A stretch of 64,000 bases of DNA from Alphaproteobacteria bacterium MarineAlpha5_Bin12 (GTDB lineage Bacteria > Pseudomonadota > Alphaproteobacteria > HIMB59 > GCA-002718135): contig PTKS01000003.1 of NCBI GenBank assembly GCA_002937855.1, positions 44,915 through 108,914 on the forward strand, in the 5' to 3' direction. How positions within the stretch are numbered: position 1 is the stretch's first letter; each line of letters begins with the position of its first letter. Shown here piece by piece: positions 15,001 through 21,000 of this stretch. A program made the position numbers.

Positions 15001-18000
15001 TTTTCAAATAAAAAATATCTTATTAAAAAGGCTAAAGTTTCTGATTTAAAAAAAATTAAAAAAAGTTACGAATATACTTATTTAAAGTGCAATGGCATAT
15101 TTTATAGAGAATATTCTTTTTGGAAATATTTATTTAACAAAAATAATTTAGAAAAAAATAAAATCGAAGTCTTAATAAAAGATAAGAAATTTTATGGTTA
15201 TATAATTAGAAATAACAACCATATTTATGAAATAGGAATATTACCTATAACAGATTTAAATATATTATTAAGAACAATAAAGTTAAATTATCAAACCATT
15301 GAATTAGATATGATTCAAAATCATCCTATTTTAAAAAATATTGATAAAATAGATTTTACATTTAAATTTAGACAATGTCCATATGGAGGACATATGCTCA
15401 AAATAATTAATACTCATAAACTAGTCAAATATTCAAAAGTTAAGTTGAATAATAATGATTTGACAAAAATTAAAAAAAATAAAATTGATCAAAAATTAAC
15501 TATGAAATTACTTCAAATAATAGATTTTTCTAATTTCCCTAAAAGTCATTTTAATTTTAATTATTTCTCTTTTTTAAATTCAGATCATTTATAAAAATGA
15601 AAGATATAGGTAAACAAATTAATTGGTATGGATGGATTTATTTTAATAAAACTATTCCATTTATATCACCCTTAATAATAAAATTTAGACAAAGAAAATT
15701 ACGTGTAATTTCAAGAGGTTACAGTAAAATTTTTAATAAAGAATTTTTAAAAAATAAAAATATTAAAAATTTAACTGTAATTGAAAAAGAGTTTAGAAAT
15801 AAAGTTTTTAGTGAAGTTGATAATTATTACTCTCCCATTATATTTAATAATGGATTAAATTTTGCAAAATTAATTTGCAAACATTATTTTTTGAAAATAA
15901 TTTATGTTAGAAAAGCATATTACCCTGCATTAAATAATGAAATCTTATATTTTTTTGGAAAAAATAAATCTAAAATAATTTATCCATTACCTAGAATTTA
16001 TCGTAATTTTTTAAAAGATTATGGAATTAAATTTAATGATTTCTTTTCAGACATTTATTGGTATCTTTTTATTACTTTTTTTTATTTTATTGGATTAGTA
16101 GTTGGATTAAAAAATATTTTTTTTAGTATTTTCTTTTGTTTTATTAAACCTAACTTAAATAGTAAAAAAAATTATGTATATTTTAATAGTTTAACTTTGA
16201 ATTGTTTGCCTAAGGATAATAGATTAAATCCAAATATAATAAATTGGTACATAGATGATAACATTAAAACACAAAATAATTATATTTGTCACAACTTAAA
16301 ATATTCTAAAAATATTTATTTAGAAAATAATATTATTTCATATAAGAAAAAAATCCAATATTTAAATGAATTTAAAGGATTAATAAAATTTTCGTTTTGG
16401 TTTTTAAAAGCTTCATTTATTTGCTTAATAGATATATTTTCAGGGAAATGGTGGCACCCATTATTATTTTATGAATCCGTTAATGCTTCTATGATAAGAT
16501 TTCAAAATTCAAGTAATATTCCTTCAAAATACTTTTTTAATAATTCAAATTTTACCTATAGACCTATGTGGACATATGAAGCAGAAAAAAAATCTAAAAT
16601 AATAATGGCTTTTTATTCCACTAATTTAAGAGAATTAAAATTGAAAAATATAGAAAATCCTTTACCCCATTATTATATAAAAGAATCAACTTGGCCATAT
16701 TTATATGTTTGGGATTTATATGATAAAAAATATTTTGAAAAAAATATTGATTTAAAAACTAATATTGAAATAAAAGGTTATATACCTTTTGAAAATGGGA
16801 AAAAGTTTGATAAAGAAAAATCATTAAAAAATCTTTCAGTTTTTGATGTTCAGCCTACTAGGGATATATTTTATAAAACTATACCTGAAAAATATCACGA
16901 CTATTATAAATTTGATAATATTATTAATTTTTTAAAAGTTATTCTTTCATTGACCAAATTTGATATAAAAATTTACATAAAAAGAAAAAGAAATATTGGT
17001 TCATTAGCTCATCCTTATTACAGAAATTTCATTAAAATTATGGAAAAAAATAATCAAATTGAATTCGTAGATAGTGAAGTTAGTGCTTATGATATGATAA
17101 AAAAATCTAGAGCAGTTATATCAATTCCATTTACTTCAACTGCACATATAGCTAATAAATTAAATATTCCTTCAATTTATTTTGATCCATCTGGTTTAAT
17201 TTATGATAATGATGAAGCATTACATAATATTAAACTAATTAATAATTTAAAATCATTGGAAGATTGGATAAAAGAAACTTTTAAACCTTAAATGAATATT
17301 ATAAATAAAATAATTAATTTTCGAAATAAATATGATATCAAATTTTTTATATATATAAAATTTACTAAACTAATTGGCCAAATTAATATTTCATTTAATA
17401 AGTTAATCTATGGTTCAAAATTTATTATAACTAAACCATACAATGTATGGGGCATAATAAGAATATTAATACATGGTAGTGGTAAAATTGAAATCAAAAA
17501 AAACTTTCATGCGGTGTCAGATAGAAGAAGATCAACCATTACATTATATTCACCTTGCAATTTAAATGTTATAGGAAAAGGAGAAATCTTTATAGATGAA
17601 CATGTTGGATTAAATGGAACTACGATAGTTAGTAAAGAAAAAATTTCTATAGGTAGAAATACGATGATTGCACCAAATACGATTATTGTTGATCATGATG
17701 CTCATAATTTATGGCCATTAGAAGATAGATGGAAGAATGAAGGAAAAAGTAGTAAAATATCTATAGGGGAAAATGTTTGGATTGGAATGAATTCAATAAT
17801 ATTAAAAGGAGTAGAAATTGGCAATGGTGCTGCAATAGCGGCTGGAAGTGTAGTTACAAAAAATTGTGAATCTAATACATTATATGCAGGTAACCCAGCA
17901 AAAAAAATAAAAAAAATAAATGAAATAAGTAAATGAAAAAAAAATATATTGAAATAGGTTATGGGAATGTGGAAAAATTACAAATTGGTGAAAATTTACC

Positions 18001-21000
18001 TTTGATTTTTATTGGAGGACCCTGTGCCATCGAAAGTAAAAACCATTCTTTAATGATGGCAAAAGAAATAAAAAGAATTTGTAATAATGTTGGGATAAAA
18101 TTTATTTTTAAATCCTGCTATGATAAAGATTGCAGATCTTCTCCAGAAAGTTTTCATGGAGTAGGTATTGATGAAGGATTAAATATACTATCTGAAATTC
18201 GAGATGAATTAAATATTCCAGTAATTTCAGATTTTTCAGAAGTTTCTCATGCAAAAAAAACAGGCGAGATTTGCGATATGGTTCAAATCCCTGCTTATCT
18301 ATGTAGACAAACCTCTATACTTAAAGCAGCCGCAAATACTGGAAGACCTATACTCTTAAAAAAAGGACAGTTTATGAGTCCCTGGAATATGAAAAATTCA
18401 GTGAAAAAAATTGAATCATTTAATAATTTTCAAATACTTTTAACAGATAGGGGAACATTTTTTGGTTACAATATGTTAGTGAATGATATGAGATGTTTTC
18501 CTATTATGTCTGAAACAGGATATCCTGTTTGTTTTGATGCAACTCACTCTGTACAACTTCCAACTTCTATGGGTAATATTTCTGGAGGCCAAAGGGAATA
18601 CATACCTAGTTTAGTAAGATCAGCAATTGCATGTGGAATCAATGCTTTATTTATGGAAGTTCATGATGATCCTAAAAATGCTCTTTCTGATTCAAATACT
18701 GTTTTAAATATAAAATACTTAGAAACAATATTAATTCAGGCTAAAAAATTCCATAATTTGCGTTTAGAAATTTTAAAAGATTTAGGAGAAGATAATATTC
18801 ATAATGATTAATAAAAAAATAAAAATAAAAGAAATTATGTTAGGGTTAAAAGAATTTCCTATAATTAATCAAAATATTATTTTAAAAGAAGCTCTTGAAG
18901 AAATGAACAAATTCAAACTTGGTATTGTTTGTATAGTTGATGATAATAAAAAATTAATTGGAGTACTAACTGATGGAGATATTAGAAGAAAAATATTAAA
19001 AGTTCAAAAACCATTTTCCGCATTATTAGTTGACGACGCACTAATTCATTCAAATAAAGAGCCAATAATAATTCAAGATAAGAATACACTTGAAGAGTGT
19101 ATCGAAATTATGGGAAGTAAACAAATCTGGGATTTGCCAGTGGTTGACGACCAAAACGAGTTATTAGGATTATTACATCTTCACCCAGCAATAAAACAAT
19201 TATTGAAAAATTAAAGTAGTGTACAGTGGAAATAAAGCAATTTCTATTTTAGCAAAAGAAATAGACAAGTTTGATCATCATGAAAGTTCTCATTGGAAAT
19301 ATTTAAATAAGAATATTAAATACGATAAAAATATAATATCTGGTTTTAGTGGCTTTGGAGATGCATCAAGAAGATTTTATGGAATACAAAATTTTCTACA
19401 CTTTTTATTTCAATCACCTTTTAGAAAACAAGGTCATACATATAAAAATTTTAAACAATATGATCTAATTTCTAGAAGAATTGCTTTAAAACAAAATAGA
19501 TCATATGATATTAATTGTCTTAGACAAACATTATTTTTGTCATATCTAAATCAAAAAAATAATTGTGAACTAAAAAATATTATTAAAACTGAACCAGTTG
19601 TTTGCATTATTGGAGATGGCTTTGGTTATATGGCAAGCTTGTTGATTAAACTTAATATAACAAAAAAAATTTATTTAGTAAATCTTTCTAAAGTTTTATT
19701 AATTGATTTAATATATCTAAAAAAAGTTTTTGGCGAAAATAAATTTAATAATTGTGTTAATTTAGTACAAAATTCTGATGATTTACAAAATATTGAAAAA
19801 AAATCATTAGGTGCAAATGAATTCCAAATTATTGCCTTAGAAGCTAAAAAATTTCATTTATTAGAGCAATGTAATTTCAATTTTGTTATGAATATTCATT
19901 CTATGCAAGAAATGAATTATAATATAATTGATAAATATTTTAATTATATTAGAAAATCAAAATATAAAGATAAAATTCTTTTTTATTGTTGTAATAGGGT
20001 TAAAAAAACTTTGTTTGATGGAGAAGAGTTAATTTTTGATGATTATCCTTGGAAAAAAAATGATAAAATTGTTTTTGATGAAACTTGCCCAAATTGGAAT
20101 CAAAGAACATATATGTCAAAAGCACCATTTTATGTAAATTATGATGGCAAACACAAACATAGATTGGTATTCTTATCCAGATCATAATAATGCAAAATGT
20201 TATAAAAAATAGGATAGATTTAAAAAAGAAATTTCTTAATAGAGATAATTTATTTGGCGGTTGGGTTTCTTTTGGACATCCTTCAATTACAGAAATTTTT
20301 ACAAATGCTAATTTTGATTTTTTAGCAATAGACATGGAACACTCTACTATTTCTTTAAATGAAGCTCAAAGAATAATCTCATCAAGCCAAGCAGGAAATC
20401 TTCCTTGTTTACCCAGGCCAGTTTCACATTCTAATGATTGGTTTAAACCAATATTGGATTCTGGAGCAGATGGTTTAATATTACCAACAGTTGAGAATGA
20501 AAAAGAAGTACAAAATATAATAGATTTAATTAAATATCCGCCCCTGGGTAAAAGATCATACGGATTAAATAGAGCTCAAAATTATGGTTTTAATTCTATG
20601 GATTATTTTAGTAATTGGAATGATCAATCCATAATAATAATTCAAATAGAAAGTATTAATGCAGTTAATAATATTGATAAAATTTTAAATAATGAGAATA
20701 TCGATGGTGTTATGATAGGACCTTATGATTTATCAGGATCTTTAAAAATACCAGGTCAAACTTCACATAAACTAGTTATAGATGCATCAAAAAGGGTAAT
20801 AGATGCATGTCAAAATAAAGGAATTAGTTGCGGCACTCAAATTGCCAATCCGGACTCTGAGAATTTGGAAAAAAATTTTAACATGGGTTATAATTTTTGT
20901 TTTCTTGGTTCTGATTTATTTTCTTTATGGAATTGGTCAGAAAAAATGTCAAAATTAATAAAAAATATTAAATAGTTTTATTTAACCTAATAAAAGAAAA

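Follow-up and report, generated by a model that had tools for sequence, protein, structure and literature searches.

Does every enzyme annotated as a 3-deoxy-8-phosphooctulonate synthase make the 8-phosphate of 3-deoxy-D-manno-octulosonate (Kdo8P), the precursor of Kdo? This question is raised by a gene in a 64,000-nucleotide stretch of Alphaproteobacteria bacterium MarineAlpha5_Bin12 (contig PTKS01000003.1, positions 44,915 to 108,914; the whole stretch is referred to as the window). The gene (17933-18811, plus strand), delimited by open reading frame (ORF) and profile searches, encodes a 292-residue phosphoenolpyruvate (PEP) aldolase of the metal-type KDO8P synthase (KDO8PS) fold, in which the motif KDCRS replaces KANRS. 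We refer to this enzyme and its relatives as KDCRS synthases. KANRS is treated as a signature of KDO8P synthases and as the determinant of arabinose 5-phosphate (A5P) selection, and the A5P-binding motif KANR(S/T) has been called absolutely conserved in the literature. The KDCRS synthase is most likely the entry enzyme of a mobile surface-glycan cassette. Its conservation pattern and gene context make a different substrate or a different stereochemical outcome the likelier reading.

The databases label KDCRS-type proteins as 3-deoxy-8-phosphooctulonate synthases. The window protein exceeds the cut-offs of the KdsA models NF003543 (346 bits, cut-off 242) and TIGR01362 (335 bits, cut-off 314), and it matches Pfam DAHP_synth_1 (PF00793) at 1.4e-65 and solved KDO8P synthases in the PDB down to 5.5e-73. 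The model for type I-beta 3-deoxy-D-arabino-heptulosonate 7-phosphate (DAH7P) synthases (TIGR01361) gave 127 bits against a cut-off of 268, and the four-residue KPR(S/T) motif of DAH7P synthases (DAH7PS) is absent, the five-residue KDCRS standing in its place. By these profile and motif comparisons, the protein is unambiguously a genuine member of the KDO8P synthase family and of its class II (metal) type. It shares the fold, the PEP site, the metal site and the phosphate clamp with KdsA, and departs from it in the KANR(S/T) motif and in the housekeeping lipopolysaccharide (LPS) role of kdsA. A sequence-only reading of this DNA had proposed a metal-dependent KdsA paralogue with rewritten substrate motifs; we read the ORF, the variant motifs and the metal ligands at the same positions.

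That reading had suggested looking for a second kdsA, and a canonical copy is indeed present. A TIGR01362 profile search over the genome's own 1.5-Mb assembly returned three loci. One is a canonical kdsA flanked by pyrG and eno (G000:C14:147400-148167, 385 bits), about 84 kb downstream of the KDCRS synthase gene on the same contig. It carries the motifs FDKANRTS, PAFLCRQTD, GPC, DATH, ETH and PSD, and its product is 43% identical to the KDCRS synthase over 255 gap-free positions. With this canonical gene in the same genome and the metal tetrad retained, the proposal that the KDCRS synthase is a metal-type paralogue holds. The third locus reached only 88 bits and is a DAH7PS-type gene, a type I-beta homologue adjoining an aroE-like gene (L003:1477-2364, minus strand; C20 ~55064-55786 in the own genome). 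It reads GGAFKPLSFPYRGP where KPR(S/T)SPY is usual, so that the Arg of the erythrose 4-phosphate (E4P) motif is replaced by Leu.

Coexistence of a KDCRS synthase and a canonical KdsA is documented in two cases, this genome and one locus of an Acetobacteraceae metagenome-assembled genome (MAG) (L077, CANFIE010000020.1, 5373-12522). The latter holds two parallel ulosonate modules. One consists of a canonical KdsA (KANRT, TDVHE, PAFLCRQTD) with its own KdsB-like gene; the other, about 4 kb away, consists of a KDCRS synthase, a CBS protein, a KdsB-like and a KdsC-like protein. Two synthase/activator pairs lying side by side argue against redundancy at this locus.

Which parts of the active site are kept? 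We compared the KDCRS clade with the canonical group column by column; residue pairs are given as window/Aquifex aeolicus, with an A. aeolicus numbering that fits C11, H185, E222, D233, K41, K46, N48, R49, S50, D81, H83, Q99, F103, R106, K124 and R154. The metal ligands C31 (GGPC, 18023-18025), H205 (DATH), E242 (MEVH) and D253 (ALSD) are all present, as in class II enzymes. Positions that are at least 90% conserved and identical in both groups are K60/K41, K65/K46, R68/R49, D100/D81, Q118/Q99, P120, A121/A102, R125/R106, K143/K124, Q146, R173/R154, H205/H185, E242/E222, H244 and D253/D233, and the window protein likewise retains C31/C11 and S69/S50. Among these, the PEP-binding and catalytic residues K60, K65, Q118, A121, K143 and R173 are invariant across both clades. 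The clamp for the 5-phosphate of the aldose is retained as R68, S69 and R125 (R49, S50 and, from the neighbouring subunit, R106 in A. aeolicus). The K-x-x-R-S stretch has five residues as in KDO8PS, not four (KPRS) as in DAH7PS, and the alignments with canonical enzymes run without gaps through loops L2, L4 and L7. The PEP half, the metal centre and the distal-phosphate clamp are therefore intact, and it is the residues of the sugar-half pocket that are rewritten.

The replacements are concentrated in three motifs. KDCRS (K65-S69, within KSCYDKDCRSS; 18125-18139, plus strand) replaces KANRS, with Ala47 changed to Asp and Asn48 to Cys, and the Lys, Arg and Ser kept. SDFSE (S99-E103; 18227-18241, plus strand) replaces TD(V/I)HE, with Asp81 kept and His83 changed to Ser. 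QIPAYLCRQTS (Q118-S128; 18284-18316, plus strand) replaces QIPAFLCRQTD, with Phe103 changed to Tyr and Asp109 to Ser, and Gln99, Ala102 and Arg106 kept. Most of the positions concerned are strongly conserved in canonical enzymes: clade residues D66, C67, S102, Y122 and S128 stand where canonical enzymes have Ala47 (83% of them), Asn48 (96%), His83 (94%), Phe103 (77%) and Asp109 (83%). Beyond the three motifs noticed earlier, the clade-specific changes include S43C, R56H and E153D in A. aeolicus numbering, that is C62, H75 and D172 in place of Ser43 (96% of canonical enzymes), Arg56 (84%) and Glu153 (90%), and a Gly-to-Thr change in loop L7 (T211; Gly in 69%). G28 replaces Ala8 (74%) and V228 replaces an Ala (78%). 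In terms of side chains, those at the Asn-to-Cys/Ser and His-to-Ser positions become smaller, a carboxylate is gained by Ala-to-Asp and a hydroxyl by Phe-to-Tyr. We considered whether the new Cys, Asp, Cys and His might form a second metal site. This idea was not upheld as a firm claim: Cys67 is replaced by Ser in one subclade, and since Ser is accepted there, the thiol itself is not essential.

The substitutions are the property of a whole clade. In a search of a 5.8-billion-protein collection, the best 120 matches are 70-100% identical to the window protein; all have K-D-(C/S)-R-S and PAYLCRQT(S/T), and nearly all have SDFS(D/E). In a 50%-identity library, the KDCRS group collapses into one full-length representative (74% identical to the window protein), and outside this cluster identity does not exceed 51%, the closest relatives having KANR(S/T). 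A motif census covered the best 150 representatives of the 50%-identity clusters, of which 105 had a scorable motif: 100 have KANR(S/T), one KGNRT, one KSNRT and three KDCRS, the last being the clade's own. In a maximum-likelihood tree of 21 clade members and 94 canonical representatives, with a DAH7PS outgroup, the KDCRS clade is monophyletic (SH-aLRT 100), and its stem measures 0.95 substitutions per site against a median crown depth of 0.34. This long stem and shallow crown, together with fixation at near-invariant pocket positions, suggest the signature of a functional shift. Judged by the tree and alignment, the clade changed in a burst and was strongly constrained thereafter.

Scanning one genome per species, we found relatives encoded in 158 stretches, of which the best 80 were taken for the locus analysis. 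These 80 relatives are 65-75% identical and come from different phyla. Their carriers are Leptospira (including L. noguchii serovar Panama), Flavobacteriaceae, Cytophagaceae, Devosia, Rhizobium, Tabrizicola, Acetobacteraceae, Pelagibacteraceae, SAR116, SAR324, Prochlorococcus, Legionella, Methylobacter, Nitrospirae, Syntrophales and others. Canonical KdsA proteins share only about 40-50% identity across phyla, far less than the KDCRS synthases do, implying horizontal spread of the latter under strong purifying selection. Searches of 5,426 E. coli genomes, the PLSDB plasmids and phage records yielded no KDCRS-type copy, and in these collections no host with a solved glycan structure has the gene; the plasmid and phage matches are all below 60% identity and have canonical motifs. 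A full-text literature search found no description of the KDCRS clade, of its pairing with the CBS protein or of the cassette, and the subfamily is apparently undescribed so far.

What accompanies the synthase? In the window, it is followed by a gene for a stand-alone CBS pair of the KdsD/KpsF C-terminal type (136 residues; 18804-19214, plus strand), whose start overlaps the synthase stop by 8 nt. We called ORFs in the 80 genome loci and the window and clustered them de novo; 57 loci have at least 7.5 kb of downstream sequence. A CBS-pair gene (~135-145 residues) directly follows the synthase gene in all 57, its start overlapping the synthase stop or lying a few bases from it. All 80 loci have a partner of this stand-alone type; none reaches further than about 150 residues past the synthase stop, and the SIS isomerase domain is therefore absent from every one of them. 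The window CBS protein is assigned by profile and PDB matches. It matches positions 155-268 of TIGR00393 (1.3e-19; 70.9 bits against a cut-off of 203.7), so that it has the CBS pair alone and not the SIS domain plus CBS pair of the KdsD/KpsF A5P isomerases. Its nearest kin are the C-terminal CBS pairs of KpsF, KdsD and GutQ, and the PDB entries that match it best over its full length are CBS pairs from A5P isomerases (4O9K, 3FNA and 3K2V). 4O9K reportedly shows a KdsD CBS pair with CMP-Kdo bound, a lead that would support end-product sensing. Fusions of the synthase with the CBS protein were looked for among the homologues and none was found. The CBS protein is most likely a regulatory subunit.

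The rest of the cassette is conserved to various degrees. Among the 57 loci, a KdsB-like cytidylyltransferase is encoded in 48, an HpcH/HpaI aldolase with two tandem short-chain dehydrogenases/reductases (SDRs) in 39, a GT-B-type protein of about 500 residues in 29 and a NanM-like O-methyltransferase in 16; a KdsC-like phosphatase is found in 14 of the 80 loci. The genes most often met upstream encode a PFTS-motif protein, a hexapeptide acetyltransferase, methyltransferases, a recurring pair of unknown proteins and nonulosonate enzymes of the NeuB/PseF type. Minimal cassettes encode the synthase, the CBS protein, the KdsB-like protein and the GT-B protein alone (L011, L067 and L070). In a Prochlorococcus single-cell genome, the island starts after the housekeeping gene lexA, with one unannotated gene in between, and the cassette comprises a phosphatase, the synthase, the CBS protein, HpcH, two SDRs and a cytidylyltransferase, with no isomerase. 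The variant motifs singled out in the sequence-only reading thus mark a discrete conserved subfamily, monophyletic (SH-aLRT 100, as above) and tied to a dedicated ulosonate cassette with a KdsB-like cytidylyltransferase. We also considered the HpcH/SDR module as the supplier of the synthase substrate. This is unlikely: the pocket motifs do not differ between cassettes that have the module and those that lack it, and HpcH and the SDRs are for this reason likelier to modify the product than to provide the substrate.

What reaction, then, would the KDCRS synthase catalyze? We consider it somewhat probable, from the sequence comparisons and the gene context, that it is a neofunctionalised enzyme channelling PEP into a CMP-activated Kdo-like sugar, the co-substrate being either a non-A5P pentose 5-phosphate or A5P itself with a different outcome. 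The acceptor would still be a five-carbon aldose 5-phosphate, because the K-x-x-R-S spacing is kept and loops L2, L4 and L7 are free of gaps. The enzyme would join PEP to such an aldose, read otherwise than A5P; alternatively, it would use A5P with a different facial outcome. D-Ribose 5-phosphate (R5P) is the simplest candidate, since the cassette encodes no isomerase. Either way, the product would be an eight-carbon 3-deoxy-2-ulosonate 8-phosphate other than Kdo8P. A KdsC-like enzyme (cassette-encoded in some genomes, housekeeping elsewhere) would then dephosphorylate it, and the HpcH aldolase, the two sugar-acid-type SDRs and the O-methyltransferase could optionally tailor it; the divergent KdsB-like enzyme would activate it and the GT-B protein would transfer it. 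In this scheme, the CBS protein would act as a separate regulatory subunit that senses the CMP-sugar end product and throttles the synthase, as if the feedback module of KdsD in the normal pathway had been moved onto a new committed step. Feedback modules usually sit on the committed step, and the re-pairing of the CBS module with the synthase suggests that the synthase is this step, as would be expected if the aldose came directly from central metabolism. A bolder version, in which the two proteins form an end-product-inhibited synthase of two subunits, the first allosteric member of the KDO8PS branch, converting a non-A5P pentose phosphate (R5P or another) to a Kdo stereoisomer, is speculative and in our view rather doubtful.

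Several observations weigh against a changed reaction. Every residue known to be catalytically essential is retained, and the enzyme still scores above the curated KdsA equivalog cut-offs. Asp occurs at the Ala47 position in about 6% of canonical enzymes, and Cys67 is Ser in the subclade mentioned above (six of the best 120 homologues). The presumed contacts between the changed residues and the sugar are those of the A. aeolicus and E. coli structures, and in the KANRS mutagenesis by Allison and colleagues in 2011 the Asn-to-Ala enzymes reportedly keep some A5P activity. Duplicates of Kdo genes with unchanged chemistry, KpsF and KpsU, are known. Moreover, the proposed substrate and product of the KDCRS synthase are read from conservation and gene context, and its putative complex with the CBS protein and the putative regulatory role of the latter from gene coupling.

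These points favour an ordinary Kdo8P synthase that receives A5P from the housekeeping KdsD and provides extra flux for a Kdo capsule or O-antigen, any non-Kdo character arising downstream. This is on balance unlikely, but it is a serious contender: the NCBIfam equivalog cut-offs are passed, the catalytic, PEP, metal and phosphate residues and the loop length are all unchanged, KdsC-like and KdsB-like genes occur in the cassette as in the Kdo pathway, and most cassettes hold tailoring enzymes that could supply the downstream character. However, positions that are 94-96% invariant were changed and then fixed clade-wide, on a long stem with a shallow crown. Minimal cassettes would, if the chemistry were ordinary, only duplicate CMP-Kdo, yet they keep a divergent synthase and cytidylyltransferase, and L077 has a canonical KdsA/KdsB-like pair right beside the KDCRS set. 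In addition, the known Kdo capsules duplicate the isomerase, whereas here the isomerase domain is gone in 80 of 80 loci. A change in substrate or stereochemistry accommodates these features more readily.

Would the substrate differ in chain length? The sequence-only reading had included hexose and 6-deoxyhexose phosphates among the possible acceptors, a suggestion that the PEP site, the clamp (R68, S69 and R125) and the five-residue spacing do not favour, all arguing for a pentose 5-phosphate of A5P length. More broadly, a hexose or N-acetylhexosamine 6-phosphate, a heptose 7-phosphate or E4P might yield a Kdn-like nonulosonate, a decosulosonate or a DAH7P-like product. Two pocket residues do shrink (Asn to Cys/Ser and His to Ser), which could make room; NeuB-type nonulosonate genes often lie beside the cassette, and GmhA-like SIS_2 and DHQ-synthase-like genes lie near one Legionellales synthase. 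Nevertheless, we regard another chain length as improbable, since the catalytic Lys and the phosphate-binding Arg-Ser are spaced exactly as in KDO8PS, the L2, L4 and L7 lengths are canonical, the KPR(S/T) of DAH7PS is missing, the cytidylyltransferase and phosphatase that accompany the synthase resemble KdsB and KdsC and not NeuA, and the extra Legionellales genes are not conserved elsewhere. Finally, neutral drift, or an inactive pseudo-enzyme or scaffold, is hardly credible given the 65-75% identity across phyla, the intact catalytic apparatus, the identical substitutions in more than 100 sequences and the conserved operon partners.

The window contains a full cassette (15597-27269, all on the plus strand), reading PFTS protein, acetyltransferase, KDCRS synthase, CBS protein, O-methyltransferase, HpcH, methyltransferase, two unknown proteins, SDR, SDR, KdsB-like protein and GT-B protein. 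The glycan island around it is long, runs on the same strand and includes a pseudaminic-acid gene set as well. The PFTS-motif polysaccharide protein (TIGR04417) and the hexapeptide acetyltransferase (15597-17936) belong to the frequent upstream neighbours. Downstream of the CBS gene are a putative sugar O-methyltransferase (TIGR04371, NanM-like; 19219-20187), an optional cassette member, and an HpcH/HpaI-family class II pyruvate aldolase nearest to HpaI, YfaU and GarL (20190-20975). A S-adenosylmethionine-dependent methyltransferase (Methyltransf_24; 21004-21780) is specific to the window locus. Two proteins of 259 and 287 residues with no Pfam or NCBIfam match follow (21793-23383). This is a recurring pair, found in about 20 of the 80 loci, usually just upstream of the synthase. 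His-rich motifs (EHTHPP) suggest cupin-like metal sites, and the pair could be an isomerase or epimerase for the sugar. Of the two tandem SDRs (23425-24985), the first resembles D-mannonate oxidoreductase, gluconate 5-dehydrogenase and KduD, and the second glucose 1-dehydrogenase.

The KdsB-like CMP-ulosonate synthetase (24964-25767) falls below all curated KdsB cut-offs (184 bits against 255, 178 against 193, and 103.5 against 155 for TIGR00466), and it is clearly homologous to KpsU (1GQ9, E 4e-25). The last gene encodes a 504-residue protein (25755-27269) that has no significant family match. Its alignment-based AlphaFold model (pLDDT 92.8) has a clear GT-B fold, and Foldseek retrieved GT1-type transferases, a polysialyltransferase and WaaA (TM 0.45-0.58). 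At the N-terminus the model has about 100 additional residues that are helical, and the invariant residues of the protein are E248, E253, H274, P294, G301 and H375. From its predicted structure, this protein is a candidate for the transferase of the activated cassette sugar.

Some further features of these loci deserve mention. Between the PseF-like gene and a GNAT gene (window 12552-14545), we found a FemAB-family protein (TIGR04421, 281 bits) and a putative aminotransferase dependent on pyridoxal phosphate (TIGR04422, 198 bits), both models being of the 'IMCC1989' hypothetical-equivalog type. These genes suggest aminoacyl decoration of a nonulosonic acid. The glycan island (window 1-34700) has 19-29% G+C and the flanking housekeeping region 25-33%. 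As the island is thus about equal to or slightly below its flank, the cassette is compositionally ameliorated despite its evident horizontal origin. In a Legionellales MAG (L006/L007:4322-7708), genes for a GmhA-like SIS_2 protein, an SDR, a DHQ-synthase-like protein, a 2-hydroxyacid dehydrogenase and a TylF methyltransferase lie directly upstream of the synthase. This set is not conserved in the other loci; its DHQ-synthase homologue might cyclise a 3-deoxy-ulosonate phosphate.

The KDCRS clade, by rewriting KANRS yet keeping the chemistry, provides a natural experiment on substrate selection in DAH7PS and KDO8PS. If its product is not Kdo8P, the plain kdsA labels across the clade are a systematic mis-annotation. 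Among abundant marine bacteria, SAR11, Prochlorococcus, SAR116 and Flavobacteria have the cassette in their hypervariable surface-glycan islands, and in Leptospira it occurs in O-antigen-type loci. Surface glycans determine phage and grazer recognition and serotype, and the identity of the sugar would add a new building block to bacterial glycobiology. If the two-subunit, non-A5P version is true, SAR11, Prochlorococcus, marine Flavobacteria, Leptospira and numerous other bacteria would bear an undescribed family of eight-carbon ulosonic acids on their surfaces. The CBS protein, as the obligatory partner, gives a testable handle on regulation in a family that, to our knowledge, is regarded as unregulated.

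How do these synthases compare with known systems? Class II KdsA, with A. aeolicus as an example (PDB 1FWN series) and 6MDY, 3FS2 and 3TML as the best sequence matches, shares the (beta/alpha)8 DAHP_synth_1 fold, the Cys-His-Glu-Asp metal site, the PEP-binding Lys, Lys, Arg and Gln, the phosphate clamp of Arg-Ser and a trans-subunit Arg, the loop lengths and about 45-50% identity. The KDCRS synthase differs in KDCRS, SDFSE, PAYLCRQTS, S43C, R56H and E153D, is extended at its C-terminus by about 15-20 residues, and is an accessory paralogue of glycan islands with an obligatory CBS partner gene, whereas KdsA is encoded by a housekeeping LPS gene. The group 2 capsules of E. coli rely on duplicates of the A5P isomerase (KpsF, SIS plus CBS) and of the CMP-Kdo synthetase (KpsU). 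The resemblance lies in a second Kdo-type gene set for a surface polysaccharide, with a homologous CBS pair and cytidylyltransferase. However, the KDCRS cassette duplicates and remodels the synthase, not the isomerase, and lacks SIS in all 80 loci; its cytidylyltransferase falls below the KdsB cut-offs, and the cassette further includes an HpcH aldolase and two SDRs.

Type I-beta DAH7P synthases belong to the same superfamily and offer a precedent for an end-product sensor (ACT or chorismate mutase) on a committed-step barrel. Their regulator is fused, their substrate is E4P and their motif is KPR(S/T), whereas the putative regulator of the KDCRS synthase is a separate CBS protein to which we assign this role by inference. 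The NeuB-family synthases (for Kdn-9-P, Neu5Ac, Pse and Leg) likewise convert PEP and an aldose or aldose phosphate to an ulosonate and then to a CMP-sugar for surface glycans, and their genes, with a HAD phosphatase and a CMP-synthetase, are often encoded beside the KDCRS cassette. They represent an unrelated synthase family (NeuB/SAF), and their products have nine carbons.

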